64,000 nucleotides of DNA from a virus. The position numbers and the translations under genes were made by a program. The stretch covers positions 1-64,000 of the IMG/VR virus record IMGVR_UViG_3300037524_002016, one strand, 5' to 3'. The notes beneath the pieces are model-generated. The model had not been told where the DNA came from. It did no database searches and saw only the letters and a list, made by a program, of their open reading frames with translations. Shown piece after piece: positions 1 through 53,225 of this stretch. The number at the start of each line of letters is the position of its first letter. The stretch's first letter is position 1.

Positions 1-244
1 CCCGGGATGCGACCCGGGATGCGACCCGGGCTGCGACCTGGGCTGCGACCTGGGATGCGACCGGGGCTGCGACCCGGGATGCGACCGGGGCTGCGACCCG
101 GGATGCGACCCGGGATGCGACCCGGGCTGCGACCCGGGCTGCGACCTGGGATGCTGTTCAGACTGCAGTCCTGAACACCCAACACGGAAGGCAACCGCCA
201 TGACTACTGTAAAAGATGCGACCCGGGATGCGACCGGGGCTGCA
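1..244. repeat. 12-bp tandem repeat array, unit C(C/T/G)GGG(A/C)TGCGAC
   Basis: About 12 consecutive copies from 1 to ~153 (array runs off the window start) and about 2 more at ~215-244. Confidence 0.95.
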
Positions 245-288
245 GTCGAGGATGCTCTTCGAAACGCCCAGCACACGGAGCCACCCTA

Positions 289-492
289 ATGAGCACCACC
301 TCCCAGCGTACCTGGGCCCCGCGAATCAACGCAACACAGGCGACCCGTCATGCCGCCGGCTTGTCCCTCCCATCGGGAAGCGAGGGCGCCTATGCCCGGG
401 TCGATTCCCGCACCTGGCAGGCAACCAAATCGACCATGAACACCGCCCTGTGGGCTTTGCTCGGCCCTAACCATCCCGACCACACGAGATAA
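289..492 (+). CDS. hypothetical early protein
   Basis: ATG preceded by GGAG; co-oriented with the downstream gene run. Confidence 0.5.
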   Translation: MSTTSQRTWAPRINATQATRHAAGLSLPSGSEGAYARVDSRTWQATKSTMNTALWALLGPNHPDHTR

Positions 493-497
493 CGACC

Positions 498-899
498 ATG
501 ACCATGACCAAGATTAAAACACTGACTGACCTGCTTCCTCGGCCCTTCCTGGCCAACATCCGCAAAGCTACCCCCGCCATGACCACCGCCAAGGATCAGA
601 ATGACCTCTACATCGAGGCCATCGAGGCCGAAATCGACTCCTTGGCCACCAGTCTGCCGGACCTGGCAGAAAATCTTGCCGAGCTGTTCTCGGATCCTAA
701 GACAGGCCAGGACTCGGCGCGCCGAGTCTTGGCGTTCATAGGCCTGTGCCCAGATCTGCACGATCGTTACCGGGCCCTGTTCCGCGAAGAGGCCGAGGCC
801 AGGCTCGCGGCTCGCATCTGCGAGTCTGACGACACCCTCGAGCCCCCGATCGAGCCAAACATCCACATCGGTCTGACCGGTAGCTTGATTCGTTATTAG
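498..899 (+). CDS. hypothetical protein
   Basis: 133-aa ORF, GC3-rich codons, CACACGAGA...ACC-ATG leader. Confidence 0.75.
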   Translation: MTMTKIKTLTDLLPRPFLANIRKATPAMTTAKDQNDLYIEAIEAEIDSLATSLPDLAENLAELFSDPKTGQDSARRVLAFIGLCPDLHDRYRALFREEAEARLAARICESDDTLEPPIEPNIHIGLTGSLIRY

Positions 900-924
900 A
901 CACAACCTCACACGAGACCCAACC

Positions 925-1374
925 ATGAAATTCCGTACCCTGAACCTCAAACCCTTCGACCTCAAACAGGCCCTCGCCGGGGCGCCTGTAGTCACTACCC
1001 AGGGGCATTTGGTTACCGAACTGGAATATGACCCCGCATGCGACGACACCTACCCGGTAAAGGGGTGTGTGAAAGACATCTATCGGGGATGGACGGACAC
1101 CGGACGCTGGTTAAACGCCATGCCCGATCCGTTGGATCTCCGGATGGTAGACACGGACACCGCGGATATCACGGACACCGCGGATATCACGGACACCGCG
1201 GATATCACGGACACCACCAACCTCCTGGCCGAGGCCCGAGACATCCTGGCCGAGATCGTTAACCAGGAGAACCCCAATTCCTGGGGCTACGACTGCGCGT
1301 ACATCGCGATGAATGATGACTGGCGAACCCGGGCCCGGGACCTGCTTCGCCGCCTGAAGGAGTCGCAACCATGA
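925..1374 (+). CDS. hypothetical protein with internal DTADIT repeat
   Basis: 149-aa ORF; ATGA overlap with the next gene. Confidence 0.8.
   Translation: MKFRTLNLKPFDLKQALAGAPVVTTQGHLVTELEYDPACDDTYPVKGCVKDIYRGWTDTGRWLNAMPDPLDLRMVDTDTADITDTADITDTADITDTTNLLAEARDILAEIVNQENPNSWGYDCAYIAMNDDWRTRARDLLRRLKESQP
1152..1215. repeat. 18-bp tandem repeat CACGGACACCGCGGATAT x3.5
   Basis: Exact copies at 1152, 1170 and 1188, partial at 1206. Confidence 0.95.
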
Positions 1375-1649
1375 GACTCGAAGACATCCTGCGGCAGCAG
1401 GCCCACTACTGCCAACACATCCTCGTGGAGGTCGACCGCCGGCTGCCGACGGTCCTGATTCGTGACAACGAGTCCGGCCAATCCGGAGAGCCCGCCGAAG
1501 ACAGGCTCGACGTTTTCCTGCAGGGCGACGACGCCGAGGAATTCATCGACAAGCTCGACGAGCTTTCCGAGCAGTGCCCCGACCTCGACTTCGACATCAT
1601 CGAGCGGGCCGCAGCCTATGACTACGCGGAGCATATAACATATGTATGA
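1371..1649 (+). CDS. hypothetical acidic protein
   Basis: AAGGAG RBS, ATGA coupling. Confidence 0.8.
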   Translation: MRLEDILRQQAHYCQHILVEVDRRLPTVLIRDNESGQSGEPAEDRLDVFLQGDDAEEFIDKLDELSEQCPDLDFDIIERAAAYDYAEHITYV

Positions 1650-1884
1650 CATAAGGGTCGGACAAATCTACGTCGCAGCGGACGGCAGCCGGTGCGGTCA
1701 TCTGGTGACCGACGTCACCACCTACCGCTCTTGCGAGGACGTCGTCACCACACCCTTCACGGCCAAGGGCTGGGACCCGCCGGGAAACCGGATCGATGCG
1801 CTTAAGTTGACCGTGGTCCGCTATCGGCTGGTTGATGCACTGCCTGATTGGGCACCCAAAGATGACCCACCTGAGTCAGTGTGA
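1642..1884 (+). CDS. hypothetical protein
   Basis: GGAG RBS, overlaps upstream stop. Confidence 0.7.
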   Translation: MYDIRVGQIYVAADGSRCGHLVTDVTTYRSCEDVVTTPFTAKGWDPPGNRIDALKLTVVRYRLVDALPDWAPKDDPPESV

Positions 1885-2164
1885 GCAGTGCCAGGACCCG
1901 ACTTGGCCTGCCGAAGGCCCGACTTGGCCTGCCGAAGGCCCGACTTGGCCTGCCGAAGGCCCGACTTGGCCTGCCGAAGGCCCGACTTGGCCTGCCGAAG
2001 GCAGGTCAAGTCTACCCGCCACCCTCGTCATCACCACCCGCACCGAAACCCTGCACCTCTGCACAGCCCACGCCAAGGCCTGGTTGGCCGAGCACCGGGA
2101 CTGGGGCGAGGTGCGGATTGGTTCTCTGAATCGGATTTATCCTCTGAAGGAGAAACACTCATGA
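1862..2164 (+). CDS. small CxxC...CxxH zinc-finger-like protein interrupted in-frame by a repeat
   Basis: CEQC...LCTAH motif; stop overlaps next ATG (ATGA); the repeat reads as PTWPAEG x5. Confidence 0.6.
   Translation: MTHLSQCEQCQDPTWPAEGPTWPAEGPTWPAEGPTWPAEGPTWPAEGRSSLPATLVITTRTETLHLCTAHAKAWLAEHRDWGEVRIGSLNRIYPLKEKHS
1900..2012. repeat. 21-bp tandem repeat (GACTTGGCCTGCCGAAGGCCC x4) ending in a 29-bp hairpin
   Basis: Units at 1900, 1921, 1942, 1963; the unit at 1984 completes GACTTGGCCTGCC-GAA-GGCAGGTCAAGTC. Confidence 0.95.
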
Positions 2165-2460
2165 CCACCAAAACTTACACCGTCGCCATTTACCGCGGCC
2201 ACCGTGAGGGCCCGAACCTGGTCCTCATTCCGGACCCGGATCTGATCGAGGAATCTCGTTGGGTCCCGCGTTCCTGGTCCGACGAATGGGCGGCATTCGA
2301 ATCCACATCGTTGAGCCAACTCGCGTTGAACCTGACCCTGAACAAGGGCCGGCCCCTGGCCTTTAACACCACGCCCGAGAACTACCGGCTGTTTGCCGTG
2401 GTGTCGGAGGGCGCGCCGGAGCGAATGGTGAAGCGGATTTGGCCGGACGAGGAGGCTTGA
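2161..2460 (+). CDS. hypothetical protein
   Basis: AAGGAG RBS before ATG 2161. Confidence 0.75.
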   Translation: MTTKTYTVAIYRGHREGPNLVLIPDPDLIEESRWVPRSWSDEWAAFESTSLSQLALNLTLNKGRPLAFNTTPENYRLFAVVSEGAPERMVKRIWPDEEA

Positions 2461-2463
2461 GCC

Positions 2464-2622
2464 ATGACCAAAGCCGAACAAGCCAAGTTCCTCGACGACC
2501 TCCTCACCGATCTCCGTACTTACCTGGAAAACCGGCTACCGGACGTCCCCGGCAACTGGGACGGTCACGAACTCCGGCGCTGGATCGCCGACACAGTGCT
2601 GAATTTTCTCAAGGGAGACTGA
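2464..2622 (+). CDS. small hypothetical protein (52 aa, MTKAEQAKFLDD...)
   Basis: GGAGG RBS; fills the gap between neighbours; below the ORF-track cutoff. Confidence 0.7.
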   Translation: MTKAEQAKFLDDLLTDLRTYLENRLPDVPGNWDGHELRRWIADTVLNFLKGD

Positions 2623-2623
2623 C

Positions 2624-2986
2624 ATGGACGACTTCACCCTCGCCTACATCGAATGCGCCCTCTGGACCTTGCCGGTCGAACACCCCAGTACGGTTTACAC
2701 CTGCGATGATCTGGCCCCCGAGACCCTGCAGAAAATGGAAGAGGACTGCCGCAAATTCCAGGAGGAGAACGCCACGCTCTTCCTGCAGGTCTACGACAGC
2801 CGGCCTGACTACGACGAGTCCAACGCCGGCCACGACTTCTGGCTCACCCGTAACGGGCACGGGGCCGGCTTCTGGGACCGCGGCCTGGACGATATTGGCG
2901 AGGCCCTGAGCGAGAAGGCCCGGGCTTTTGGCGAATGCGAACTTTACGTCGGCGACGATGGCAAAATCTACCACTGTGGAGGCTGA
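2624..2986 (+). CDS. conserved phage early protein (AGHDFWLTRNGHGAGFWDR motif)
   Basis: Motif recognised from phage early-region hypotheticals; GGAG RBS. Confidence 0.8.
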   Translation: MDDFTLAYIECALWTLPVEHPSTVYTCDDLAPETLQKMEEDCRKFQEENATLFLQVYDSRPDYDESNAGHDFWLTRNGHGAGFWDRGLDDIGEALSEKARAFGECELYVGDDGKIYHCGG

Positions 2987-2987
2987 C

Positions 2988-3242
2988 ATGAAGTTGCAAT
3001 TCTTCAACGACCCCGGCCACGGCTGGCTCAGGGTGCCCCGCAAGATCCTGGTTCAGCTGGGTATCCTCGACCAGATCTCCAGTTACTCCTATCAGCGGGG
3101 CGACGCTGTCTACTTGGAGGAGGACTGCGACGCCAGCAAGTTCCAGGCCGCGGCGAATGCCGCCGGCCTGGAAGTGACTTTCGCCGACCACTATTCGGGC
3201 CGGCCCAGCCGGATTCGCAGTTACGAGGGGTTCAAGCCCTGA
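2988..3242 (+). CDS. conserved phage hypothetical protein (DPGHGWL...YLEEDCD)
   Basis: GGAGG RBS; recognisable motif. Confidence 0.8.
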   Translation: MKLQFFNDPGHGWLRVPRKILVQLGILDQISSYSYQRGDAVYLEEDCDASKFQAAANAAGLEVTFADHYSGRPSRIRSYEGFKP

Positions 3243-3335
3243 CCAGCGAGGGTGAAGACAACGGGTCCTGGGTCCAGACCTGGTCCTGGGTGAGTTTTGC
3301 TGGCACCCCGCTCGACAAGGAGAAGGAGGACGAAG

Positions 3336-3716
3336 ATGGCGAATAGCAACTGCCTCGAAGGTCTCCGCTGCCCGCACTGCGGCAGCTACGAGCCGTTCAG
3401 CATTGAGGGTACCGTCAGTGCCAAGGTCTACGATGATGGTGTCGACGAGAGTAAATGTTTCGAGTGGAACGACGACAGCCAAATCGTTTGTCATGACTGC
3501 GGACGGGACGGATTGGTGCGGGAGTTCAAAGTCAAGGAGGATGACGAAGTCGACATCCCGAAGGACCGGCCAAGGCCCCGCGTCCTCATCATCGTCCTGG
3601 GCGGCGTCGTCGAATACACCGTCGACGGGGACGTGGACGTGGCCCTGGTCGACTACGACAATGGCGACGTGATGGTGGTGGAAGGCTTCGAGGACCTGGC
3701 CTCGCCAGCTACCTAG
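3336..3716 (+). CDS. zinc-ribbon protein
   Basis: CPHC...CHDC; AAGGAGG RBS. Confidence 0.75.
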   Translation: MANSNCLEGLRCPHCGSYEPFSIEGTVSAKVYDDGVDESKCFEWNDDSQIVCHDCGRDGLVREFKVKEDDEVDIPKDRPRPRVLIIVLGGVVEYTVDGDVDVALVDYDNGDVMVVEGFEDLASPAT

Positions 3717-3734
3717 CTACCTAGCCCAGTTAGC

Positions 3735-3763
3735 TTGTACTGTCACAACAACGGCAGTACACT
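3735..3763 (+). promoter_or_regulatory. sigma70-like promoter overlapped by an inverted repeat
   Basis: TTGTAC-N17-TACACT; TGTACTG/CAGTACA inverted repeat. Confidence 0.5.
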
Positions 3764-3800
3764 ATACCCCCACCGCCACTTCCCCATCTCTGGAAAAATT

Positions 3801-4061
3801 ATGGACGTATGGACTCTTGTGATTAACAACGCCGAGGGCCTTCAGTGCCACGGTAGTTACAATCCAGCCGATGTCGACGCCAAACTTCTGGACTACGTCC
3901 AGGAACGTTGGACGACCCGGTACAAAAGTCGGGCAATCCCCGACGATCCCGAGGCCGCCATCGAGGCCTACTTCAACCGGCACCAGAATGAGCAGTATGC
4001 TCGGTTCCGGCTGCCCCTGACTGACCTTTCTCTGGAAGGCCAGAGCACTTTGACCAACTAG
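3801..4061 (+). CDS. hypothetical protein
   Basis: ORF just downstream of the putative promoter. Confidence 0.7.
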   Translation: MDVWTLVINNAEGLQCHGSYNPADVDAKLLDYVQERWTTRYKSRAIPDDPEAAIEAYFNRHQNEQYARFRLPLTDLSLEGQSTLTN

Positions 4062-4070
4062 GGGTATCAC

Positions 4071-4451
4071 ATGAGAGACCTGATCAAGATCGACAAGTCC
4101 CACGGCATCATCCGCCAGGGCGACGTCCTCCTCATCCCCGTGAAGGCCATTCCCACCCAGGCCACGGCACTGCCCCCGGACGAGCCCCACCGGGTCATCC
4201 TGGCCCACGGTGAGGTGACGGGCCATGCCCATGCCGTCTACAAACCGAAAGCCGTTGTTAAGCAACGACTTGACCTGCCGCAGGCAGGTCAAGTCGATAA
4301 TCAACCTGCGGCCTTGACGTTTTTGCAGGTCCTGGAAACGGTCAACCTGGGCCACGAGGAGCACACTGCAGCACCGCTGAGCGCGCCGCAGTACTTCACC
4401 ACCATCCAGACCGAGTACACGCCGGAAGAACTTCGGAACGTGGCTGACTGA
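4071..4451 (+). CDS. conserved protein (RQGDV...HGEVTGHAH...HEEH), usual partner of DUF6745 genes
   Basis: His-rich conserved motifs; a DUF6745-like gene lies downstream. Confidence 0.8.
   Translation: MRDLIKIDKSHGIIRQGDVLLIPVKAIPTQATALPPDEPHRVILAHGEVTGHAHAVYKPKAVVKQRLDLPQAGQVDNQPAALTFLQVLETVNLGHEEHTAAPLSAPQYFTTIQTEYTPEELRNVAD
4266..4296. repeat. palindromic element copy 2 (perfect 14-bp stem, GCA loop), inside CDS
   Basis: CGACTTGACCTGCC-GCA-GGCAGGTCAAGTCG. Confidence 0.9.
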
Positions 4452-4453
4452 CC

Positions 4454-4482
4454 GACTTGGCCTGCTGAAAGCAGGTCAAGTC
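4454..4482. repeat. palindromic element copy 3 (intergenic)
   Basis: GACTTGGCCTGCT-GAA-AGCAGGTCAAGTC. Confidence 0.9.
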
Positions 4483-4544
4483 TCATCAAATCCCGACCAG
4501 GGCCAGACTCCGCTTCTGGCCCTTTAACTTGCACATGGTGGTCA

Positions 4545-4781
4545 ATGTACGCTGAAGAAGTCAAAGTACTGACCCGCATGGAAGCCCGTGGCCCCCTCAT
4601 GAGGGCACTCTGGACTTCAATCAACATCGACATCCTTGACGTTGTCAACGAAAAGCAGGTCACCCTTCTCGGGATCACCGCCCGACCCCACCGCGCCACC
4701 CAAGACGACCTCGAAGCTGTCACTCGGGTCGCCCATGTGACCGACGTTTTTTCCAACCTTTCCAACCTCACGCGAGACTGA
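4545..4781 (+). CDS. hypothetical protein
   Basis: 78-aa ORF in the operon. Confidence 0.55.
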   Translation: MYAEEVKVLTRMEARGPLMRALWTSINIDILDVVNEKQVTLLGITARPHRATQDDLEAVTRVAHVTDVFSNLSNLTRD

Positions 4782-4784
4782 CCA

Positions 4785-5903
4785 ATGACTGACATTATCC
4801 GCGAAAAAGACCGCATCGCTGGACCCCTCACCGAAGAGGAAAAGGTCCAACTGAAGGCCCACGCTGACCTCTGGATTCAGCGCATCCTCCGTACTGATCC
4901 CATAGAACCTGACAAGATCAAACACTCGATAAAGGACCTTTATCGAGTGTCAGACTTAGCTGAACCCTATGTGGCGGTCGTGACCAGTCCCGTCATGGCG
5001 GCCTTCGCCGGCGGGGCCATTGCGGCGGTAATCGAAGACGGCACGGTGACCGATGAAGAAGTCCCCGCGACTGTCGATCGGATCGTCGGTCGATTCACCG
5101 TGGTGGTCCCCGTTCCGGGGACCACCGTTGAACAGGCCTACGCCGCGCTCTGCAAGGAGATCGGTGGCTCCCAAGGCCTCAAGCTGGCTTCCCAGATCGA
5201 CACCTACATGGCCGGCGGTAACATGTGGGCGCAGTATGACTGCCTCCTGACCGCCATGCGAGACGTCCTGGGGCTGGACCTGCCCGAGCATGTGCCCTAC
5301 AAGGCCTGGGAGGAATGCGCGATCCACGGGTCCTTCCGGTGGCTCCACGAAAAGTTCTGCCTAGTGTCTGACTTCCCTGAAGCCATTCGCCAGGATGAGC
5401 AGTTCAGGCCGCACTGCGATGATGGTCCGAGTCATCGGTGGCGGGACGGCTGGGAGCTTTTTTATGTTCACGGGGTGAGAGTACCGCCCAAAGTGGTATT
5501 ATCACCCGAGACATTAACTGCCCAGGAAATCTCCGACGAGGTCAACGCCGAGGTCCGCCGAGTCATGCTGAGCCGGTTCGGCCTGGCCCGCTACGTCAAG
5601 GAGGCTGGCTTCGACGTGGTCTGCGAGTACCCAGAAGACCACCCGTTAAAGGGCCTCCGCACGGCCCAGGTGATCCGCAAGGAGCAGGAAGACGACGAGC
5701 CCATCGTCGTGCTCGACATGCTCAACAGCACACCGGAGCCGGACGGCACCACCAAACGCTACACCATCCGGGTGGATCCCAATGCCTACGATGGGTTGGC
5801 GTCCGAGGACTGCTTGGCGGCGATGGCCTCGACGTACCGGCTGCCGGACGGGAGCCTGGTGTTTGAGAAGCCGGAGGATTATCAGCCGGCGTTCGAGTCG
5901 TGA
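4785..5903 (+). CDS. DUF6745-like domain protein
   Basis: PHCDDGPSHRWRDGW..YVHGVRVP, NAEVRR and NSTPEPDGT..Y.IRV motifs. Confidence 0.75.
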   Translation: MTDIIREKDRIAGPLTEEEKVQLKAHADLWIQRILRTDPIEPDKIKHSIKDLYRVSDLAEPYVAVVTSPVMAAFAGGAIAAVIEDGTVTDEEVPATVDRIVGRFTVVVPVPGTTVEQAYAALCKEIGGSQGLKLASQIDTYMAGGNMWAQYDCLLTAMRDVLGLDLPEHVPYKAWEECAIHGSFRWLHEKFCLVSDFPEAIRQDEQFRPHCDDGPSHRWRDGWELFYVHGVRVPPKVVLSPETLTAQEISDEVNAEVRRVMLSRFGLARYVKEAGFDVVCEYPEDHPLKGLRTAQVIRKEQEDDEPIVVLDMLNSTPEPDGTTKRYTIRVDPNAYDGLASEDCLAAMASTYRLPDGSLVFEKPEDYQPAFES

Positions 5904-6094
5904 ACGTAGCCAGTGACACCTACACGGTATTTGCCAATTTCGCTAATGCGCTGACCAATGCAATCGTGAACAACGAAGGCCGCTGGCTGGGCAGCACCGG
6001 AGACTTAGCTTCCGAAGCCCTTGAAGAGGTTTACAACTCTGACCGCCTGGGAACGGCCGTCTGGCGGGCACTTCATACCATCGAACCGCCCTAA
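5900..6094 (+). CDS. hypothetical protein
   Basis: GTGA overlap with the upstream stop. Confidence 0.5.
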   Translation: MNVASDTYTVFANFANALTNAIVNNEGRWLGSTGDLASEALEEVYNSDRLGTAVWRALHTIEPP

Positions 6095-6152
6095 CGTCTC
6101 CACCTTGGAGTTATCATAGGGGCTCCCGTGAACCACACCTCGGCGAGTCCCT

Positions 6153-7958
6153 ATGAAACTCCTCTCCATTCTGGCGCTGGCGTTTATCAGCGCACTCCTT
6201 CCGTGGCAGGCCCAGGCCGAACCTCAGTTCGTGCCGGGCCGGCTGCTGGTCAAAGTTCAGAAAGCTGTAACAGATAAGCAGCGGGTCAGTTTATTTACAT
6301 CGTACGGAATAACTGAAGAGCCCGATCCTCTGCTTGCTAAGCTCTACACCTACAAGGTCAAAGTGCCATTCAACGAAGAAGACGAGTTTATTCGTCGGCT
6401 GTCAGGGCACCCGCTGATTGATTACGTGGAAAAAGATCTGGTCATACCGCCGGCTGCAGTGCCGAATGACACCAGTTACGGTTCGCAATGGTATCTACCA
6501 AAGATTAATGCACCGGGGGCTTGGGACATTACCACAGGAAGTGCCAGTGTTTATGTAGCCGTATTGGATTCTGGGTATCAACTAGACCACCCAGATATGG
6601 TAGGTAAATTTGAAACCAGTCTAGGAAAAAACACAGCTTTAAATAATACAGATCTCAGCCCGGTAGGCTTAATTCCTGATCACGGTATGAAGGTCTCCGG
6701 ATTAGTTGGAGCCGTGACTAATAACAGCACTGGAATAGCTTCAGTTGGATGGAATACAAAAATAATACCCATTCGCATTACCGACGCCAGCGGCACTATT
6801 CTTTGGTCGGCGATAGCCAGCGGGCTGGTCTGGGCAGCGGATAATGGCGCCAGGGTGGCGGTGGTCAGCGCTGAGCTTTCGGTCGCTTGCAATCCATTTT
6901 CGTTCGTTACTTGGAACACTGTAGTAGACGCAGCACGTTATTTTTTAGGTAAAAACGGTTTGACGGTTATTGCCGCTGGAAATGCGGGCTCTGACTATAA
7001 TTGTCCAAGGGCCTCTGAAATACTGTTTGTCGGCAACACTGAGAGTGATGATACTCGCAGGACCACTTCCAATTACGGTTGGTTTCTCGATGTTATGGCA
7101 CCAGGTGCAAACATTTACAGCCTGAGCACTGGCAGTGGCTATGCTTCGGCCAGTGGAACGTCGTTTTCATCTCCCATAGCGGCCGGAGTCGCGGCTTTGA
7201 TGGTTGCAGCCAACCCCACCATCTCGCCGACCCAGATCGACACCATCTTGAAGGGGACGGCCTACCGGCCACCCAGCCTCGGCAACGTGTGGCCCACGCT
7301 GTCCTACGGCTATGGCCGGGTCGACGCGGCTGCCGCAGTGGCGGGTGCTGTAGCTGCCGCCTCCGAGGTGGATCGGCAACCGCCGGAGGCCCGCATCACC
7401 ACCTACAGCCTGTGGGAAGTCGTGGCGGGTACCGACACGGTGAAGGTCGAGTTGGAGGACAACGTCGGGATTGTCGAAACCGCGCTCTTTACCAACAAGA
7501 GCAATACTCCGGTGGCCACCAACACGGTACCGCCGTTCGACGAATTTTCCTGGAACACAATTACGGCGGGCGACGGGCCTGTGGCTATCACCGTCAAGGC
7601 CAAGGACGCGGCCGGCAACTGGGGCGAATCCTCACCGCCCACCTGGCTCTGGGTCGACAACGGCGTCACCCCGGACACGACCCCGCCCACTGGCACGGTG
7701 TTATCGCCGGCGAACTACAGCATGGTGAGCGGCAAGGTCGAACTCAGCGTCCGCGGGACCGACCCCGAGGGCCTGGAAGAGACCGTACTGATGGTCGATG
7801 GCCTCGTGGTGGCCGTCAACATGGACCGGAACACTCAACAGGATGTGACCTACAGGTGGAATGCAGGCAAGGCGTCCTCGGGGATCCACTTCATCACGGT
7901 GATGACGACCAACAAGAACAAGTTGACGGGCGGGCAAACGGTGATCGTCACGAAGTGA
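6153..7958 (+). CDS. secreted subtilisin-like (S8) serine protease with propeptide and two C-terminal Ig-like domains
   Basis: Signal peptide ending AQA; triad motifs VAVLDSG, DHGMKV, SGTSFSSP; oxyanion AAGN; D..PP-initiated Ig-like modules. Confidence 0.92.
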   Translation: MKLLSILALAFISALLPWQAQAEPQFVPGRLLVKVQKAVTDKQRVSLFTSYGITEEPDPLLAKLYTYKVKVPFNEEDEFIRRLSGHPLIDYVEKDLVIPPAAVPNDTSYGSQWYLPKINAPGAWDITTGSASVYVAVLDSGYQLDHPDMVGKFETSLGKNTALNNTDLSPVGLIPDHGMKVSGLVGAVTNNSTGIASVGWNTKIIPIRITDASGTILWSAIASGLVWAADNGARVAVVSAELSVACNPFSFVTWNTVVDAARYFLGKNGLTVIAAGNAGSDYNCPRASEILFVGNTESDDTRRTTSNYGWFLDVMAPGANIYSLSTGSGYASASGTSFSSPIAAGVAALMVAANPTISPTQIDTILKGTAYRPPSLGNVWPTLSYGYGRVDAAAAVAGAVAAASEVDRQPPEARITTYSLWEVVAGTDTVKVELEDNVGIVETALFTNKSNTPVATNTVPPFDEFSWNTITAGDGPVAITVKAKDAAGNWGESSPPTWLWVDNGVTPDTTPPTGTVLSPANYSMVSGKVELSVRGTDPEGLEETVLMVDGLVVAVNMDRNTQQDVTYRWNAGKASSGIHFITVMTTNKNKLTGGQTVIVTK

Positions 7959-8009
7959 CGGGTGAGGGTGTACACTATGGTCCTACTGTACCCACAACAG
8001 AGGACCACC

Positions 8010-8495
8010 ATGGAAATTATCCCCACCGGCCAACAGGCCGGCCCGCCCCGCGGTAAGCCGCACGTCGTCAACCCGGTCAAGGCCAAACTCAACATCCCGC
8101 TTTACTACAACACCGAGCGCGGTCCGGTGCCGTGGAACCACGGCATCTACTGCTCTCATGTGTTCGCCGCCACCGTGTTGGGTCCCCTGGAGGTCCTGTT
8201 CGAGCGGAACAACTGGGGCCTCTGCCACATCGGCTTCTATAACCCCCGCTTGGCGCGGACCAAGGCCGGCAAGACCATTCAGCCGGAACGCTGGAGCAAC
8301 CACAGCCACGGCCTGGCCGTCGATTTCAAGGGCACCGTCGACGAGGACGGCAAGCTCACCACCGTCCGCCAGCTGAAGGCCAAAGGCCTGCTCGACGACA
8401 TCGTCGGGCCCGTGCAGACCGCCATCCTGAAGGCCAACCGCAAGCCCGAAATCGTCGATGAGGGCGGCTGGCTGCACATCGGCATCTGGCCCTGA
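8010..8495 (+). CDS. extensin-like / peptidase M15 family zinc peptidoglycan peptidase (endolysin candidate)
   Basis: GFYNPR...SNHSHGLAVDF (SxHxxGxAxD) and WLHIG. Confidence 0.7.
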   Translation: MEIIPTGQQAGPPRGKPHVVNPVKAKLNIPLYYNTERGPVPWNHGIYCSHVFAATVLGPLEVLFERNNWGLCHIGFYNPRLARTKAGKTIQPERWSNHSHGLAVDFKGTVDEDGKLTTVRQLKAKGLLDDIVGPVQTAILKANRKPEIVDEGGWLHIGIWP

Positions 8496-8521
8496 TTTTC
8501 AACTTGAAACGAACACCGGGG

Positions 8522-8550
8522 TTGACATCAACCCCCGGTGTACGTACGAT
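8522..8550 (+). promoter_or_regulatory. sigma70-like promoter inside a 13-bp inverted repeat
   Basis: TTGACA-N17-TACGAT; ACACCGGGGTTGA-CA-TCAACCCCCGGTGT. Confidence 0.7.
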
Positions 8551-8556
8551 ATGTTC

Positions 8557-8646
8557 CGTCACTTCTCTTCTTCTCCTCAACTAGGTTCCTACCTGGGACT
8601 GTAAGGGCTTTGAACTTACCTTCTTCGGTTCAGAGCCCGCTTTTTA
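8557..8646 (+). ncRNA. candidate ~90-nt CU-rich small RNA
   Basis: Bounded by a promoter and an intrinsic terminator; no ORF; CUCCU and UACCU in single-stranded parts. Confidence 0.5.
8605..8646 (+). terminator. intrinsic terminator
   Basis: 11-bp stem GGGCTTTGAAC/GTTCAGAGCCC followed by GC-TTTTT. Confidence 0.65.
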
Positions 8647-8812
8647 TCAGTTTCCGTTCTGCCTACCGTGGGTAGGACAAAAGAAAAGCCCGATGTGACC
8701 AACACCGGGCTCTTCAATTTTTTGGACACCCGACCAAAGGTGTCCGTACTCACACGAGAGTGCAGAGTTTGTCACGTCTCGTGTGCCTTTGCAACTCCGC
8801 GCGGAGAAATTT

Positions 8813-8983
8813 ATGAAAACCATCCCCCTGCTCTTGACCGTCCTGCTGGTGGCCCTGGTGGGCTGCAAGAACCTGCCGTTCAACGTCTCCACCGACGGCC
8901 AGTCCGTCACGGTGTGTCCGAAGCCGACCGCTCCGTTGGCGGTGGAACCGGCCACGGCCGCACCCAAGGCCGAAACGAAATGA
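8813..8983 (+). CDS. small lipoprotein (56 aa)
   Basis: MKT + hydrophobic stretch + lipobox LVGC; GGAG RBS. Confidence 0.8.
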   Translation: MKTIPLLLTVLLVALVGCKNLPFNVSTDGQSVTVCPKPTAPLAVEPATAAPKAETK

Positions 8984-9315
8984 GGGAGGTAACTCAGACC
9001 CGTCAGGACGAACTCCGTGAAGTCTCGATCGAGTGGTTGTCCGACACCTTGCCGGAAAACCGCAACATGGGGCCCGCGGAAAAGTTCCTGAAAGAGATGT
9101 TCGTCGAGGCCATCGAGGAAATCTGCCACGAAGTGAACGGCACCTACCTGATGGAAAGGTTGGCCGAGGAACTGGAAGCCAAGACCCATCCGGTCACGTT
9201 GATCCCCCTCAACCTGCTGATGCGGAGCAAGCCTGCCAGCCTCGCCGACTGGTTCCGGGCCACCCACCCGGACGCCAAGTGCGTCCAGGTCTGGAGGGCC
9301 CAACATGGCGGATGA
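8980..9315 (+). CDS. hypothetical protein
   Basis: ATGA coupling to the lipoprotein gene. Confidence 0.7.
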   Translation: MREVTQTRQDELREVSIEWLSDTLPENRNMGPAEKFLKEMFVEAIEEICHEVNGTYLMERLAEELEAKTHPVTLIPLNLLMRSKPASLADWFRATHPDAKCVQVWRAQHGG

Positions 9316-13920: not shown

Positions 13921-14877
13921 ATGGCGGTGTACAAACGGGGCAATGTGTATTGGGTCCGGATCTGGCGCGATGGTCGACAGATTCGGAAATCGGCAGGGAA
14001 GGGCGCATCCAAGGCAGACGCCAAAGCTCTGGAGGCCGAGATGTTTCGTGAATTCATGAAGCATTTACCGGGCCTTCGGAAGCACACGCTGCGGGATGCC
14101 TATGATCGCTGGCTCGCCACCGATTGCAGGGCCCTGAAGTCGGCCAAGAAAACGGGCAACCATGCGTTGCACGCTCTGGAAGGCTTCTGGGACGAACCCT
14201 TAACCCAAGCGCCAAGGGTTGCAGACGCCATCAAGGCCCGGCTGCTGGGTCTCGGCCTCAGCAATGCCACGGTCAACCGCCGCGTTGCGGTGGTGATCCG
14301 GCTCTGCAATTTGGCGTACAAGTGGGGCTGGCTCGACCAACCCATTGCCAGCAGGATTACGAAGCTGCCCGAGCACAACGAGCGGCACGTGTATCTGGAA
14401 CCGGAACAGGTGGAGGCCCTGGCCTCGGCTTGTTACCTTCCAGAAGCCGGCGACCTGATTCGGGTCGCTGCGTTCACAGGCCTTCGGCGTGGCGAGTTGC
14501 TGGCCCTGTCAGCAGGTATGCTGCAGGGTGATGTGATCCTGATGCCGGCACATAAATCACGCCGGCGGGCAGTGCCGATACCCGAACACATCTGCTCGAT
14601 CGTTCAGAGGATGCCGCTGCCTGTCACCGACGGGCAGCTGCGCCTCAACTGGGATCACGCCCGTAAAATCACTGGACTGTTGCAATATCGGTTCCATGAT
14701 TTACGTCACAGTTACGCGAGTTGGCTGGTCCAATCCGGGGCCTCGCTTCGAGCGGTGCAGGAACTGTTGGGGCATACCACTCCGACCGTCACCCAGCGCT
14801 ATGCGCACCTGGAGGTCGGCAATCTTCGGACCGTGGTGACCCAGATGGTGACCCTTCGCGGCAAGCCATCCGCTTGA
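13921..14877 (+). CDS. tyrosine recombinase / phage integrase
   Basis: TGLRRGE (R), FHDLRHSYASWL (HxxR), LLGHT (H), TQRYAH (Y); N-terminal arm-binding-like segment. Confidence 0.95.
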   Translation: MAVYKRGNVYWVRIWRDGRQIRKSAGKGASKADAKALEAEMFREFMKHLPGLRKHTLRDAYDRWLATDCRALKSAKKTGNHALHALEGFWDEPLTQAPRVADAIKARLLGLGLSNATVNRRVAVVIRLCNLAYKWGWLDQPIASRITKLPEHNERHVYLEPEQVEALASACYLPEAGDLIRVAAFTGLRRGELLALSAGMLQGDVILMPAHKSRRRAVPIPEHICSIVQRMPLPVTDGQLRLNWDHARKITGLLQYRFHDLRHSYASWLVQSGASLRAVQELLGHTTPTVTQRYAHLEVGNLRTVVTQMVTLRGKPSA

Positions 14878-14897
14878 TCCAACCGGGTCAGGTTGAT

Positions 14898-14983
14898 TGG
14901 CAGAGGACAACGGAGTCGAACCGTCAACCCGAAAGGTTGGGCGGGATTTCAAGTCCCGTTGCACACCATGTGCCCTGTCCTCT
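14898..14983 (-). tRNA. tRNA-Ser(UGA) with 8/4 acceptor/T-stem
   Basis: AGAGGACA-GG-GCACATGGTGTGC-AA-CGGGA-CTTGAAA-TCCCG-CC-CAACCTTTCGGGTTG-ACGG-TTCGACT-CCGT-TGTCCTCT-G-CCA; long variable arm, G discriminator, encoded CCA. Confidence 0.9.
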
Positions 14984-16667: not shown

Positions 16668-16946
16668 ATGGCCCGCCGACGCCAACTGCGCGGCATTCCG
16701 CTCATTGAGCCGCTCGATCTGATTCCGACCTACAACCGACTGGTGGTGGGCGAGGCCTTGTATGTGAAAGGCCCCGACCATCAGCCGTGGTTGCGTCGGA
16801 TGTCTCATCGGGCGGTTCGGCGTGGCCGGGACTACCTCTACGTCCCGGTCACGCACAATGAGCACGGCATGCCACTTCCACGAGATCAAGTCGGCGCGCT
16901 GATCGTCAAGATCACCGCGGCCAAGGCGTACCCAAGACTAATCTGA
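16668..16946 (+). CDS. hypothetical basic protein
   Basis: ORF in the operon immediately before the primase. Confidence 0.65.
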   Translation: MARRRQLRGIPLIEPLDLIPTYNRLVVGEALYVKGPDHQPWLRRMSHRAVRRGRDYLYVPVTHNEHGMPLPRDQVGALIVKITAAKAYPRLI

Positions 16947-21366: not shown

Positions 21367-21591
21367 ATGAAGAAGATTAATACATATCTGGCGGATCGCC
21401 AGATTGACGGATTAGACGAATTGGCTACGAAGACGGGCATCAAGTCTTCGGAGCACATCAGGCGTGCAATCGACGCCTACCTCGCCGAGCAGGCTGGCCT
21501 GCTCAAAACCGAGCATTACTCGCTCGGAAACCCTAAACCTAAATCAGAAGGAAACGACAATGGCACTACAGAGAACCGCTCAAATCGATAG
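21367..21591 (+). CDS. ribbon-helix-helix transcriptional regulator
   Basis: MKKINTYL..RQI..LDELA.KTGI..SEHIRRAIDAYL; GGAG RBS. Confidence 0.85.
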   Translation: MKKINTYLADRQIDGLDELATKTGIKSSEHIRRAIDAYLAEQAGLLKTEHYSLGNPKPKSEGNDNGTTENRSNR

Positions 21592-22318
21592 CGATCCCTT
21601 CTCAAACGAAAACGACCCCTTTGAAGGTGGCGCCCCGGCGGTAACCGGAGCGCCCGCGGAAACGGAAAACCACCAGGCCCTCGCAGTTGCACCCTCTGCC
21701 TCAGTCCCCGTCGTCGCGTCCCGTGCAAAAGGCTACGACGTCTCGGAGGTCCTGTCGCCCGAGGAAATGGAAGGTCTGGAACTCGGCTTCGGCTCGTTCC
21801 CGATCGTCACTCTAGACGGCAAGGAGTTCGATTGCAAGGGCCAGAACTGGACCCTGGGTGACTCCTTCACCGGCCGCATCTTCTCCTACCGGCCCAAGTA
21901 CCTGGCCAAGGTCCGGGCCGACAAGGACGCCATCAAGGAGCTGGGCATCGACCCGGTCATCGTCTACACCTACGACGACTTCCGCAAGGATCCCGGCGCC
22001 CTGGACACCAACGGCGTTCCGATCGCCGACCGCGTGGCCTACTGGAAGGGCAAGGGCAAGGGCTACGAGTTCGACAAGTACATGGAAGTAAACTTCGAGA
22101 TGATCGACCCGGGCCAGCCCTGGGACGGCGTTCTCGTCCAGTTGTCGGTCTCTAAGGCCTCGGTGCCGAAGTTCTCCGCCTATGTGATGGCTGCCCTGGC
22201 CGGCCAACAGAAGAAGCGCTACGACGCCGTCATCACCAAGGTCCACAAGGGCGACCGCATTACGGTCGGCACCGACGTCTTCCGTCCCTGGGCGTTCTCG
22301 TACGTCAGAGATCTCTAA
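21560..22318 (+). CDS. replication-module protein (possible ssDNA-binding protein)
   Basis: Strongly biased codons; lies between helicase and polymerase; function inferred from position only. Confidence 0.6.
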   Translation: MALQRTAQIDSDPFSNENDPFEGGAPAVTGAPAETENHQALAVAPSASVPVVASRAKGYDVSEVLSPEEMEGLELGFGSFPIVTLDGKEFDCKGQNWTLGDSFTGRIFSYRPKYLAKVRADKDAIKELGIDPVIVYTYDDFRKDPGALDTNGVPIADRVAYWKGKGKGYEFDKYMEVNFEMIDPGQPWDGVLVQLSVSKASVPKFSAYVMAALAGQQKKRYDAVITKVHKGDRITVGTDVFRPWAFSYVRDL

Positions 22319-22323: not shown

Positions 22324-22352
22324 CGGGTGGCCGACCTGCGGTCGGTCACCCG
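22324..22352. other. 13-bp intergenic hairpin
   Basis: CGGGTGGCCGACC-TGC-GGTCGGTCACCCG. Confidence 0.7.
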
Positions 22353-22414: not shown

Positions 22415-25186
22415 ATGGAACCTTTTTCCTTTCACGTGCTCCTCGACCTGAGGGGCCTGGTCCTTCGCGCCTACCATTCCGGGGTCGATCCCGACGCCTA
22501 CCCGGTGGAAGGGCGTCCCGTCAACACCGCGGCCTACGGCCTCGATGTCTTCATTGACCGGTACCTGAAGCCGGTCCTTACCTACGCCCAGCCACTCGAC
22601 ATCATTGCCGTTCACGACGCCGGCAACGAGTACCGGCGCGCCCTTTATCCGGACTACAAGCTCAAGCGCCGCGAGAAACTCGCCGGCGAGTTCGAGAAAC
22701 AGCAGGCCGACCTGTTGATGCGGCTGGTTCGGGACCTGCTGGCCCAGTTGGGCTGCCTTCAGGTCTACTGTGAAAAGACCGAAGCCGACGATGTCGTGGC
22801 CTATCTGGTCGAGAAGTTACACGGCAACAAAGCCATCTACACGGTTGACGAAGACCTCGTACAACTGGCCACCCCTGACGGGGTGACCGTTTTTCGTGGA
22901 GACGACTGCTTCACCGATGAAATCCACGGCATCCCAGCCGAGCTTCTGGTCCTCCGCAAATCCATCATTGGTGATTCTTCCGATGGCTATGGCGGTGTCG
23001 AGGGGGTCGGTCCCAAGGGCTTCGACAGCCTGCGGGACGACTTCGGTATCGATGGTCTCTACGAACTGGACAAGATCGTCCGGACCCAAGACTGGAATGA
23101 CCTTGCTGCCTGTTGCACAGGCAGCAAGGTAATACAAAAGCTCTATGATCAGCGCCAGCAGTGGCACCTCTGCTACCAACTGGCCCGGCTGCATCCCGAG
23201 ATCTGCTACCAGATCAAGGACCGGAGCCTGAGGACATTGAAATGGCTCAAGCGACTCCCGAGTCGGGACAATGTTGCCAGTTTGCTTGAGCAGACGGGCA
23301 ACACCCACCACCTGGAGGCCCTGGAGAAGTTCTTGCCGCGGTTCACCCTGGTTACCCAGGCCAACCTGATGCAGGTGCTCCCCGAGATCAAGGGCTACCT
23401 CGCGGAGAACAGCTTTGCCGCGTTCGACTACGAAACCTATGACCCCGTCCAGTGGGAGCCCTTCCAGCGGGCCAACAAGCGGGGCCAGTACCTCGACATT
23501 CTGAGTCACATGCCGACCGGTGCATCCTTTGCCGTGGGTCCCAACAACGCCCGGGCCTACTACTTCTCGACCGAGCACAAGGACACGGCCAACGTGCCAG
23601 CTGGGGTCATTGGCGGGATGATCCAGTACATCGAACTGGAGCGGAAGATTCCCCTGGCCGCCCACAACGTCGCCTTCGAAGACGCCGTCACCGGCAACAC
23701 CTTCCACTATCGATTGCAGTCCCGCTGGGACACGATGCTGATTCAGCGGCACCTGGATGAAGAGGGTTTCTCCGGTCTCAAGCACCTGTCGAAGCACTAC
23801 TTGGCCTACGACCAGACGACGTATGCGGAGTGTTTAGCTCAGGCTGGGCACACAGCAGCCATGGCTGCTGTGTGCGAAGACTCCGAGGGCGACTTGCCGC
23901 CCACGGCCGCCGTCCACATGGCCGATCTGACCGGCGAGGAAGTCCTCCACTACGCCTGTGACGACGCCCTGGTGACGGCACACCTGCTCCCGCTCATGGT
24001 CCGGCTGGGCCAGATCGAGGGCTGGTGGAACCATGTCCGGGAAACGGAGTTCACTGCGGCAGCGCCCCTGGTCGACGTCTACCTGGATGGTGTGCCGGTG
24101 GACTATGAGCGGCTGGACTACCTCGCCAGCGAGGACCGGAAGACCATCGCCGCCGGCCAGGTCAGGGTCCGTGAACTCCTGCAGGCTCACTGCACGAGCG
24201 CATCTGACGAGGCCGTGGACCGGTTGATGGAGGAACTGGAACCCTTCATCCGGGCCAAGGCCAAGGCCGACGGCAAGACCGCCACCGAGGCCACGGAGAA
24301 GGTCAAAGCCGAGCGCGCGTACTTCGAGATCGAAGGCAGTTACCGGCCGTGGATCGAGATCACGGAACGGATTCCCTTCAATCCGACGGCGACCCAACTG
24401 AACAAGGTGGGCGAAGCCCTGGGCGTGGTGACGCCGCTGGAGAAACTGACCAAGGGCACGCTGACGGCCTACATCAGTCAGGCCATGGCCGAGCATCGAC
24501 CGGATCCGGATTCCGATCTGGGGCGGTTCCTCGATCTGTTGCGGCATGCCACCGGCAAGGCCTTCAAGGAATTGAATTCGCCGGAGCGTCTGGCTCTGAT
24601 CAACTTCTGCGAGGGCATCCTGGGCCAGAACATTAAGACCACCTGGACCGGCAGCGAGTTGAACTCAGGCAGCGGCAAGCAGATGCAAGCCTTCCTCTAC
24701 GTGATGCTGGATTTGCCGATTCGCCTCCGTTCGAAAGTCGACAAGGGCTCGACGCGGGAGCAACTCGGCTTCGAGGGCGCGCCCTCGACCAACGAGAAGG
24801 CCATCAAGGTGGCGATCGCCGAGGACACCAAAGGCAAGGGTTTGCCGGACACCTGGATGCCCTGGGCCGAACTGCAGAAAGCCATCGAGGTTTCGGCGAA
24901 CGGCGACTGGAAGGCCGAGGTCCTGCTGACCTGGTTGGCTGTCGGCAAGGCCCAGACCCGGGAAGAACTGTACTGGACGCCCTACCCGCTGTGGAAGCAC
25001 CCGAAGGACGGACGCATCCACCCCTTCTTCCGGCCGTCCGGCACGGAAACACGGCGGCCGACCGGGTCGTCGCCGAACCTGTTCCAGGTTTCGAAGAAGG
25101 ACGGCGGGTATGTCCGTTCAATGTTCGTGCCGTTTGAACCGGAGCGGGCACGGGTGGTGCCAACTAATGTGGAGAAAGCAGCATGA
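22415..25186 (+). CDS. polA: family A DNA polymerase, N-terminal chain (5'-3' exonuclease, 3'-5' exonuclease, thumb, start of palm)
   Basis: YR..LYPDYK..R, EADDV, DEDL.QL, GDSSD...GV.GVGPK; FDYET, HNVAFE, YACDDA; DGRIHP...T.TRR.....PNL.Q...VRSMFVP. Confidence 0.9.
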   Translation: MEPFSFHVLLDLRGLVLRAYHSGVDPDAYPVEGRPVNTAAYGLDVFIDRYLKPVLTYAQPLDIIAVHDAGNEYRRALYPDYKLKRREKLAGEFEKQQADLLMRLVRDLLAQLGCLQVYCEKTEADDVVAYLVEKLHGNKAIYTVDEDLVQLATPDGVTVFRGDDCFTDEIHGIPAELLVLRKSIIGDSSDGYGGVEGVGPKGFDSLRDDFGIDGLYELDKIVRTQDWNDLAACCTGSKVIQKLYDQRQQWHLCYQLARLHPEICYQIKDRSLRTLKWLKRLPSRDNVASLLEQTGNTHHLEALEKFLPRFTLVTQANLMQVLPEIKGYLAENSFAAFDYETYDPVQWEPFQRANKRGQYLDILSHMPTGASFAVGPNNARAYYFSTEHKDTANVPAGVIGGMIQYIELERKIPLAAHNVAFEDAVTGNTFHYRLQSRWDTMLIQRHLDEEGFSGLKHLSKHYLAYDQTTYAECLAQAGHTAAMAAVCEDSEGDLPPTAAVHMADLTGEEVLHYACDDALVTAHLLPLMVRLGQIEGWWNHVRETEFTAAAPLVDVYLDGVPVDYERLDYLASEDRKTIAAGQVRVRELLQAHCTSASDEAVDRLMEELEPFIRAKAKADGKTATEATEKVKAERAYFEIEGSYRPWIEITERIPFNPTATQLNKVGEALGVVTPLEKLTKGTLTAYISQAMAEHRPDPDSDLGRFLDLLRHATGKAFKELNSPERLALINFCEGILGQNIKTTWTGSELNSGSGKQMQAFLYVMLDLPIRLRSKVDKGSTREQLGFEGAPSTNEKAIKVAIAEDTKGKGLPDTWMPWAELQKAIEVSANGDWKAEVLLTWLAVGKAQTREELYWTPYPLWKHPKDGRIHPFFRPSGTETRRPTGSSPNLFQVSKKDGGYVRSMFVPFEPERARVVPTNVEKAA

Positions 25187-25431
25187 AGTTTTGTAAGGAC
25201 TGTGTGCACGTTGAAGTACTGGGAAAAGCAACGTCTTGTTACTGGTGCAATCGGGCCCTCACTTTTTATCAGGACCCGGTCACCGGGGATAGAATAGAGA
25301 CAGGCAGCCGACAGTGCATGGACGAACGCTCGAACGAAGGCCTCTACCATTGCGGACCCGAGGGCCAGTACTTCATCAAGCGTCGGCCCTGGTGGGCCAA
25401 GTGGGTGGACCTGTGGTTCGGAGGTCACTGA
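25183..25431 (+). CDS. small Cys-rich protein between the polymerase halves
   Basis: CKDC...C...C...CGPEG; ATGA and TGATG coupling on the two sides. Confidence 0.75.
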   Translation: MKFCKDCVHVEVLGKATSCYWCNRALTFYQDPVTGDRIETGSRQCMDERSNEGLYHCGPEGQYFIKRRPWWAKWVDLWFGGH

Positions 25432-27197: not shown

Positions 27198-27387
27198 GTG
27201 GCCGGAGTTCCGGCTACCTCCCATCAACTTGTGGGTGATGCCGCCCTGGCGTGGGCGGACACCCGAAAAGCGGTGCGTCAAGCAGTGCCGACTGAATCGG
27301 CGCACCCAAACCTGCGATGGCTGTGGACGTACCATGGCTGAGATTAAACAAGCGTACGAGAGAATAACATGTCCCAAGACCCGTTGA
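27190..27387 (+). CDS. DUF1289-like small Cys protein
   Basis: CVKQCRL.....CDGCGRT..EI. Confidence 0.65.
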   Translation: MPEWPEFRLPPINLWVMPPWRGRTPEKRCVKQCRLNRRTQTCDGCGRTMAEIKQAYERITCPKTR

Positions 27388-53211: not shown

Positions 53212-53225
53212 GCCGTTTTCTCAAC

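Follow-up and report, generated by a model that had tools for sequence, protein, structure and literature searches.

Short palindromes that recur inside and between genes are known from several settings. Repetitive extragenic palindromes and bacterial interspersed mosaic elements (REP/BIME), intragenic REPs among them, together with the Rickettsia palindromic elements (RPEs) RPE-4 and RPE-6, comprise palindromic units of 20-40 bp that fall into several families (Di Nocera et al. 2013, PMC3733652). Template-switch quasipalindromes (Abraham and Hazkani-Covo 2021, PMC8604942) and the coding palindromes of Nematomorpha mitochondria (PMC6649704) are perfect inverted repeats within functional genes, where one arm is kept and the other overwritten, amino-acid replacements come in runs and no enzyme is encoded by the element. 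Cluster O mycobacteriophages carry dozens of 17-bp dyad repeats with 3-bp centres, intergenic as well as intragenic, with no clear orientation of the centre to transcription (Cresawn et al. 2015, PMC4351075), and the early promoters of phage N4 have a GNA loop closed by C-G that extrudes from supercoiled DNA (PMC4496689). Features of these systems recur in a set of palindromes to which a 29-bp element, GACTTGRCCTGCY-GNA-RGCAGGTCAAGTC, belongs; there are three copies of it in the stretch of viral DNA analysed here (the window, bases 1-64000 of the 82,529-bp IMG/VR record IMGVR_UViG_3300037524_002016, classed as linear and 98% complete).

By sequence the three copies make up a single family, which belongs to a larger, lineage-specific population of palindromes able to form hairpins. 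This population has GNA centres and is divided into families, and some of its members coincide with insertions or with one-arm replacements in the encoded proteins. As to its origin, we suggest, at a probability of about 0.4, that hairpin-nucleated template switching both makes and copies the palindromes without a transposase; both this mechanism and the absence of any dedicated function are things that we infer.

The motif occurs without mismatch at 1984-2012, 4267-4295 and 4454-4482, there is no fourth site in the whole record, and none of 100 dinucleotide shuffles yields a match. This bears out the first-pass annotation of the window, which had reported these copies, a loop that stays GNA (GAA, GCA and GAA in copies 1 to 3) and a closing pair that changes from C-G, in the first two copies, to T-A in the third. 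Copy 1 has 13-bp arms with a G.T pair at stem position 7 on the plus strand, and copy 2 has perfect 13-bp arms that lengthen to 16 bp when the flanks are counted. As single-stranded DNA, copies 1, 2 and 3 fold on the plus strand at -12.2, -14.4 and -11.7 kcal/mol (z -6 to -7). On the minus strand copy 2 again reaches -14.4 kcal/mol; for copies 1 and 3 the fold is weaker than on the plus strand by about 2 kcal/mol (-10.4 kcal/mol for copy 1), because G.T there turns into A.C. The annotation had presumed that C-GNA-G hairpins are unusually stable, and this premise holds in that a GNA loop closed by C-G is required in N4 for supercoil-driven extrusion (PMC4496689); such loops also favour the formation of small hairpins (PMC3201870).

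Two of the copies lie in open reading frames (ORFs) and are read in different frames, again as annotated: copy 1 begins on the third position of a codon in ORF 1862-2164, and copy 2 on the second in ORF 4071-4451, where it encodes ...LDLPQAGQV.... Copy 3 starts 2 nt past the stop codon of the latter ORF and ends 62 nt before the next gene start, with no T-tract after it. Copy 1 is joined to a tandem array on the plus strand (1897-2002; 5.0 perfect 21-bp units, 100% identity), the unit of which is the left arm plus the loop plus GGCCC, so that the expansion noted earlier is present in the assembled sequence. In the frame of ORF 1862-2164 the array reads as PTWPAEG repeats with a codon score of -0.11, as expected for recent non-native sequence, and removal of 1900-2016 (117 nt), as proposed in the annotation, is in frame and brings ATLV... 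directly after ...CQDP, at what the annotation reads as a zinc finger. In run X1 the Logan DNA contigs end at 1926 and restart at 1973, both within the array, and three public RNA runs gave sparse contigs (depth 2-15), none of them spanning 4267-4482.

ORF 1862-2164, on the plus strand, is an ORFan: searches returned no homologs but one spurious match to the repeat and two spurious matches to the C-terminal 50 residues. It is probably a real gene nonetheless, because its last 50 codons (2012-2161) score like those of neighbouring genes in that frame only (log-likelihood ratio 0.41 per codon, GC content at third positions 0.78, negative ratios in the two other frames) and its stop codon and the start of the following gene overlap in the ATGA at 2161. 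ORF 4071-4451, likewise on the plus strand, is a member of phrog_27831, with some 2000 homologs; the segment that contains copy 2 makes it 12 residues longer than homologs of 103-104 residues that are 53-54% identical. In an Atlas structure search, the phrog_27831 protein fold matches part of a 366-residue DUF6745-family protein (TM score 0.67), and a DUF6745 gene (4785-5903) lies two genes downstream. Rfam 15 covariance models, run on window positions 1-9000 at E up to 1, gave two weak, chance-level matches and none at the palindromes.

The first-pass annotation had further suggested that the motif is confined to the early region, and this does not stand: partial relatives are found at 71056-71086, 81111-81139 and 81545-81571, and the class is genome-wide. 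An inverted-repeat scan of the whole record (non-overlapping, at least 11 paired bases, at most one mismatch) recovers 46 palindromes, so that the full-genome scan called for in the annotation yields three exact sites within a class of 46 members. Triloops with 12 or more pairs account for 18 of the palindromes found, whereas five third-order Markov simulations gave none. A 3-base centre is present in 21 of the 46, and 17 of these triloops have G-N-A there on one of the strands (nine on the plus strand, eight on the minus strand), where 16% would be expected (p 1e-10). Fifteen triloops are closed by C..G and four by T..A. Since the GNA centre shows no strand preference, it fits an origin at the level of DNA; it lies on the sense strand in just 11 of the 21 triloops.

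Predicted genes contain 36 of the 46 palindromes. Among the ten outside genes, seven begin 1-11 nt past a stop codon (4454, 22324, 71056, 73444, 73745, 75124 and 81519). The flanks of 14 hairpins were inspected, and only 81545 is followed by even a short T-run, so that the T-tract of an intrinsic terminator is lacking. Canonical terminators do exist in the record, as TTCG-type tetraloops with T-tracts at 53220-53270, 65150-65175, 76140-76185 and 76830-76880; the host polymerase evidently uses ordinary terminators, and the triloop palindromes are therefore of a different design. Density varies along the record, at 11.2, 6.7 and 5.4 palindromes per 10 kb in three plus-strand blocks, 12.0 in the head block and 0.4 in the 26-kb tail block, the tail module (record 37.4-61.2 kb) being nearly free of palindromes. 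Codon usage lends no support to a foreign origin of this palindrome-poor block, as it matches that of the head block (r 0.96). When palindromes with at least 10 pairs and a single internal mismatch are considered, 22 have G.T or T.G on the plus strand, seven have A.C or C.A and 12 have another mismatch.

Relatedness among the palindromes goes beyond the three exact copies. At 71056-71086 the outer 10 bp of each arm are those of the three copies and the inner 4 bp are different yet fully complementary; at 81111-81139 and 81545-81571 it is the inner 9 bp that are shared and the outer 4 bp that differ and are again complementary. Both 81111 and 81545 begin with CGTC, which is itself paired. A further family is made up of 22324, 68469 and 73444, and two pairs have arms in common (706 with 25625, 69532 with 72110), the palindromes at 706-733 and 25625 sharing the arm GGACTCGGC. 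Members of a family sit at non-homologous sites: neither similarity between their flanks nor target duplications were found.

Copies 1 to 3 and the relatives at 71056, 81111 and 81545 have TGRCC...GGYCA at stem positions 5-9. The record has 16 sites that match the spaced pattern TGRCC-N11-GGYCA where 1.7 would be expected, and no spacing other than 11 shows such an excess. The 13-3-13 palindrome at 22324-22352, 5 nt past the stop of the gene at 21560-22318, carries the core as TGGCC...GGTCA between outer and inner stems that are different and compensated; the same form of the core, around a 9-nt centre, is found at 16820-16854 inside ORF 16668-16946. In an alignment of nine core 29-mers, 99.1% of cells are paired, 8 of 13 pairs have changed on both sides, five core pairs are invariant, and stem pair 7 is a transition mismatch (G.T) in eight of the nine. 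Note that these 29-mers were picked as palindromes, so that pairing as such is there by construction; what is informative is the invariant core and the recurrent mismatch. Core and loop do not always point the same way, as at 81111, where GCA lies on the plus strand and the mismatch favours the minus strand, and about 35 of the 46 palindromes have no TGRCC core and are unrelated in sequence.

Four genic palindromes coincide with in-frame segments that are absent from homologs, and are RPE-like in this respect. In the terminase gene, the palindrome at 72110 falls within residues 257-279, which correspond to a single 23-residue gap in the closest relative, P0126 (56% identity), and which are also absent from UAntarctica and from all eight IMG/VR relatives. 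In the C-terminal fragment of DNA polymerase I, the 13-3-13 palindrome at 25625-25653 lies within a 23-residue insertion relative to Pseudomonas phage UAntarctica (about 36 residues relative to Bacillus Pol I). A nuclease gene encodes TSDLPQAGQT at 81111, in the same frame and with the same peptide core as copy 2, and is 10 residues longer there than the nuclease of Staphylococcus phage PALS_1 in a pairwise alignment (BLAST places gaps of 8 and 2 residues). The fourth is copy 2 itself, in its 12-residue segment. In addition, the palindrome at 23848 adjoins a 16-residue insertion. The insertions are about 30-70 nt in size, against more than 100 bp for RPEs.

Other genic palindromes appear to have been written into existing sequence. 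There is no change in length at the seven alignable ones (19314, 20102, 23097, 32378, 69998, 70552 and 71600), and the one at 71780 adjoins a 3-residue difference from UAntarctica. At 71780, in the terminase, the residues STVL encoded by the left arm are kept and the next five to six, encoded by the right arm, all differ from those of P0126. The 17-3-17 palindrome at 23097-23133, in the 5'-3' exonuclease region of the polymerase, has a right arm that corresponds to the conserved TGSKV and a left arm that has diverged. These two cases are clear and resemble the published signature of template switching (PMC8604942); 19314, 32378 and 71600 are ambiguous, the outgroups being 26-56% identical. The portal palindrome at 69998 (11 of 12 pairs, 5-nt loop) encodes a conserved QSLSNTETL motif and may be one of the roughly two expected by chance.

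How far does the class extend beyond this phage? By polymerase and SbcD, the nearest cultured relatives are Pseudomonas phages of 78-88 kb (UAntarctica, PMBT3 and Lana) and Vibrio phages. UAntarctica (81 kb, 58% GC) has an annotated set of replication, repair and structural genes comparable to that of the present phage, and contains 18 palindromes with at least 11 pairs, only one of them a triloop. Eight IMG/VR terminase relatives have 0-3.5 palindromes per 10 kb against 5.6 in this record; terminase relatives in IMG/VR are 30-41% identical, and one match of 33% identity comes from a metagenome-assembled genome labelled Nitrosomonas. Exact copies of the family were absent from IMG/VR, from 185,579 GTDB species genomes and from JGI metagenome contigs, collections in which the record itself was possibly masked. 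A looser form of the core pattern returned 97 stretches in IMG/VR, seven of them fully palindromic, each on a separate contig and none from a related phage; one provirus had six core matches, one of them a perfect palindrome. By protein, ORF 4071 has no close relatives in IMG/VR and reaches only 36% identity in metagenome contigs.

A mechanism that would tie these observations together starts from the nascent strand, which would fold back at a very stable C-GNA-G mini-hairpin and copy its own upstream bases (template switching). Such fold-back copying would overwrite the next 13 or so nucleotides, or add a short insertion, to leave a perfect 13-3-13 palindrome. Switching between nearby hairpins could then copy a whole palindrome to a new site, from 4267 to 4454 (187 nt apart) and to 1984, and the relatives at 71 and 81 kb might likewise be copies to further sites, with hairpin slippage accounting for the expansion into the 21-bp array. 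The events that survive would be those that fall in frame in tolerant protein loops or just past stop codons, and the symmetry of the palindromes would be maintained by the DNA itself during replication. Template switching between the arms of inverted repeats is described as homogenising arms, inverting spacers and, in coding DNA, exchanging as many as five adjacent residues (PMC8604942).

Several features point to a process acting on DNA: the C-GNA-G centre is found on either strand and the arms are complementary whatever their sequence; insertions occur alongside one-arm replacements; no flanks are shared and there is no transposase; and the triloop class is nearly absent from UAntarctica. 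Pfam searches of the seven largest ORFs and PHROG searches of 98 ORF translations provided the gene content, and among the predicted proteins so scanned there is no transposase, RAYT (REP-associated tyrosine transposase) or HUH gene. A PHROG 'transposase' match at 78377-78958 of the record was rejected, as it covers a helix-turn-helix (HTH) domain only. For the small mobile palindrome proposed in the first-pass annotation this means a mixed outcome, in that non-homologous sites and four in-frame insertions speak for it, whereas in-place replacements and the missing transposase or HUH gene speak against it.

In its behaviour the population appears REP/RPE-like by analogy, although the defining unpaired tag and RAYT are absent. 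REPs lie within about 20 bp past the upstream ORF (here copy 3 at 2 nt and six more at 1-11 nt), some units sit wholly inside ORFs and are translated, often in genes of DNA synthesis or repair, G.T pairs are tolerated, and one REP super-family is also without a known transposase (PMC3733652). On the other hand, there is no unpaired GTAG or CGTC tag here, stems measure 13 bp around a 3-nt GNA loop, where those of REPs have mostly 6-9 bp (PMC3733652), families have 2-6 copies, the carrier is a tailed phage rather than a cellular chromosome, and many members are in-place replacements. With regard to template-switch and Nematomorpha palindromes, the differences are a far higher density for the size of the genome, a defined C-GNA-G centre, a mode of arm length at 13 bp, the recurrence of one palindrome at several loci, and short insertions besides replacements.

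A number of observations sit uneasily with transposase-free copying by template switching. Across triloops of unrelated sequence, 11 of 21 have arms of precisely 13 bp, and a mutational process is not obviously a ruler. An invariant core amid compensated pairs suggests that something reads the core, and the mismatch kept at pair 7 should have been erased if template switching homogenised the arms. The excess of G.T on the plus strand (22 versus 7) is found in all three gene-orientation blocks and thus amounts to an absolute strand asymmetry. Density is very uneven between tail and head despite their alike codon usage, and placement next to stop codons could reflect function and not only tolerance. 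Finally, the homologs of ORF 4071-4451, which the annotation had proposed to align in search of empty sites, give a divided answer: the segment is missing from the 53-54% identical homologs, but P0002, 89% identical, keeps the full length. In P0002, 5 of the 11 palindrome-encoded residues differ, and a script working at the peptide level finds that codons exist for its peptide that keep 12 of 13 pairs without a shift of register, which is the case for 1.8% of the 11-residue windows across the whole phage proteome and for 3.8% of random substitutions at the five positions. This suggests, from peptide sequence, that the palindrome of copy 2 persisted in the P0002 lineage with both arms changing together; no gain or loss at the level of strains was seen in a comparison that lacked the DNA of close relatives.

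Many of these points would be accommodated if the palindromes were functional DNA hairpins or cruciforms, with a protein recognising the TGRCC core at a set distance from an extruded C-GNA-G loop. We regard this as the main rival, though unlikely on balance. The reader might be the primase-polymerase, helicase, SbcCD-like nuclease or junction resolvase, or another protein of phage or host, and the use might be priming, recombination-initiating cleavage or control of topology. The invariant core at stem positions 5-9 with its retained mismatch at position 7, its excess at a single spacing, the 13-bp arm mode, the block-wise density and the preference of single transition mismatches for G.T on the plus strand at any gene direction would all follow; the loop is the motif that N4 extrusion requires (PMC4496689), and the phage codes for SbcCD-like, resolvase and primase-polymerase genes. 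Yet about three quarters of the class (some 35 of 46) lack the core, core and loop polarities disagree at 81111, members behave as disposable insertions in protein loops, UAntarctica has comparable replication genes and nearly none of the triloop palindromes, and the binding protein is hypothetical. A more specific form, in which C-GNA-G loop, 13-bp ruler, TGRCC core and G.T at position 7 make up a polar, structure-read signal for the replication or recombination machinery of the phage (for example strand-specific priming sites or start sites of break-induced replication, written through the terminase, polymerase and nuclease genes), strikes us as rather improbable. Next in rank among the rivals, and doubtful in our view, comes a REP-like or MITE-like element (MITEs being miniature inverted-repeat transposable elements), moved in trans by an enzyme of phage or host (a host RAYT-type enzyme, for instance) that recognises the TGRCC core. 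Families of 2-6 members without flanking similarity, in-frame insertions, and placement less than 20 bp past upstream ORFs and in replication and repair genes, as with REPs, agree with it, and the two members that start with CGTC recall the CGTC REPs, which are likewise without a known transposase (PMC3733652). However, the arms are paired to the last base so that no GTAG or CGTC tag is left unpaired, target duplications and a transposase or HUH gene are missing from the scanned DNA and proteins, no exact family copy turned up in species genomes, IMG/VR or metagenome contigs, and in-place replacement with one conserved arm is unlike cut-and-paste insertion.

If the palindromes acted in RNA at gene ends, as terminators or attenuators without a U-tract, as RNase sites or as 3' stabilisers, the seven intergenic members just past stop codons and their strong RNA folds would make sense, and the genic ones would be by-products. 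But T-tracts are lacking in a genome that has TTCG terminators with them, 36 of 46 palindromes lie inside genes, GNA is on the sense strand in barely half of the triloops, and in the minus-strand gene block 8 of 11 transition mismatches are A.C on the sense strand; RNA-level roles are plausible for intergenic members only, and as an account of the class we think them improbable. That the palindromes are duplex operators for a dimeric regulator, similar to the stoperators of Cluster A mycobacteriophages or to the Cluster O repeats, seems very unlikely. Inverted TGACC half-sites at a fixed spacing, an integrase and a divergent HTH gene (the two-HTH protein of 78377-78958 could be the regulator) would suit such a role, and in Cluster O phages a 7-3-7 palindrome is repeated more than 30 times, in genes as well as between them (PMC4351075). 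Those repeats, however, have invariant 7-bp arms and an A/T-rich centre, as fits a protein site (PMC4351075), whereas the arms here are 13 bp and compensated around a GNA centre; a dimer bound to duplex DNA would have no need for compensation at pairs outside the half-sites (8 of 13 double changes, 99.1% of cells paired), and the half-site centres are 16 bp apart. The least credible of all, close to negligible, are N4-type hairpin promoters for a virion RNA polymerase, on which the annotation had modelled a structure-read early signal. Only the loop motif, GNA closed by C-G, agrees; no RNA polymerase family was matched in the Pfam and PHROG searches, the giant ORFs encode a tape measure and a tail tip, the 13-bp stems are about twice as long as the 7 bp of the N4 promoter structure (PMC4496689), and the sites are spread genome-wide, two of the three copies within ORFs. 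Template switching nucleated by hairpins thus remains the reading that we prefer, tentatively.

The record is that of a siphovirus and not of an N4-like phage. Its 2869-residue ORF encodes a tape measure protein that contains VanY and lysozyme domains, and its 2313-residue ORF a gpJ-like tail tip protein (both by Pfam); a tandem repeat of 246 bp (2.0 units, 77% matches) lies within the tail tip gene at 37519-38019. By a codon-based gene map, 90.5% of the record is coding, with genes on the plus strand from 0.3 to 34.8 kb, on the minus strand from 34.8 to 74.4 kb (tail, head and packaging genes) and again on the plus strand from 74.7 to 82.1 kb. An identical 12-bp tandem array stands at both ends (12.8 units at 1-154, 36.8 units at 82088-82528), so that the contig probably represents a circular or concatemeric molecule interrupted within the array, and the plus-strand block then continues from 74.7 kb across the record end into the window. 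This array would then have at least 50 units in total and is open in several frames; together with it the early region holds three perfect coding minisatellites, with units of 12, 18 and 21 bp, the 18-bp one (3.6 units, 1152-1215) encoding DTADIT repeats in ORF 925-1374.

Replication and repair genes identified by PHROG and Pfam comprise the primase-polymerase, the helicase, a split DNA polymerase I, SbcC-like and SbcD-like proteins and the junction resolvase; others are an integrase, terminase, portal, protease, major head protein and class II ribonucleotide reductase. DNA polymerase I occupies two ORFs (22436-25186 and 25431-26327), broken just ahead of the motif-A region, with an 82-residue ORF (25183-25431) between the halves; in UAntarctica the polymerase is a single gene of 3657 nt. 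The ribonucleotide reductase (27369-30398) has a LAGLIDADG domain at residues 779-825 and looks intein-like. A tyrosine integrase is directly followed by a minus-strand tRNA-Ser(TGA) (13921-14983, the tRNA at 14898-14983), which has an A1-U72 acceptor end and an encoded CCA and appears to be phage-borne. The gene at record 78377-78958, with its two HTH domains, is divergently transcribed, and along with the integrase and the tRNA it hints at a temperate lifestyle.

In the literature that we could cover, from which most subscription journals were missing, we found no tailed phage for which GNA-centred palindromes in coding sequence are described; the one precedent for dispersed palindromes in tailed phages that our searches gave is the Cluster O repeats (PMC4351075). 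Dispersed palindromes are also described in a vibriophage, and the Lamassu DdmABC defence senses such palindromes in phage DNA (PMC11707656); a palindrome-rich genome that also encodes an SbcCD-like nuclease is therefore well suited to studying how phages tolerate hairpins. Should the core turn out to be read by a protein instead, it would constitute a new kind of phage DNA signal. If, on the other hand, hairpin-nucleated template switching is the right explanation, this would be a tailed phage with its own population of transposase-free, self-copying palindromes, which add or rewrite 4-23 residues in proteins such as terminase, DNA polymerase and nuclease. The phenomenon known from REPs and RPEs and from the 'selfish palindromes' of mitochondria would thereby be extended to Caudoviricetes, and the phage would offer a natural setting where protein variation can be seen to arise by template switching.

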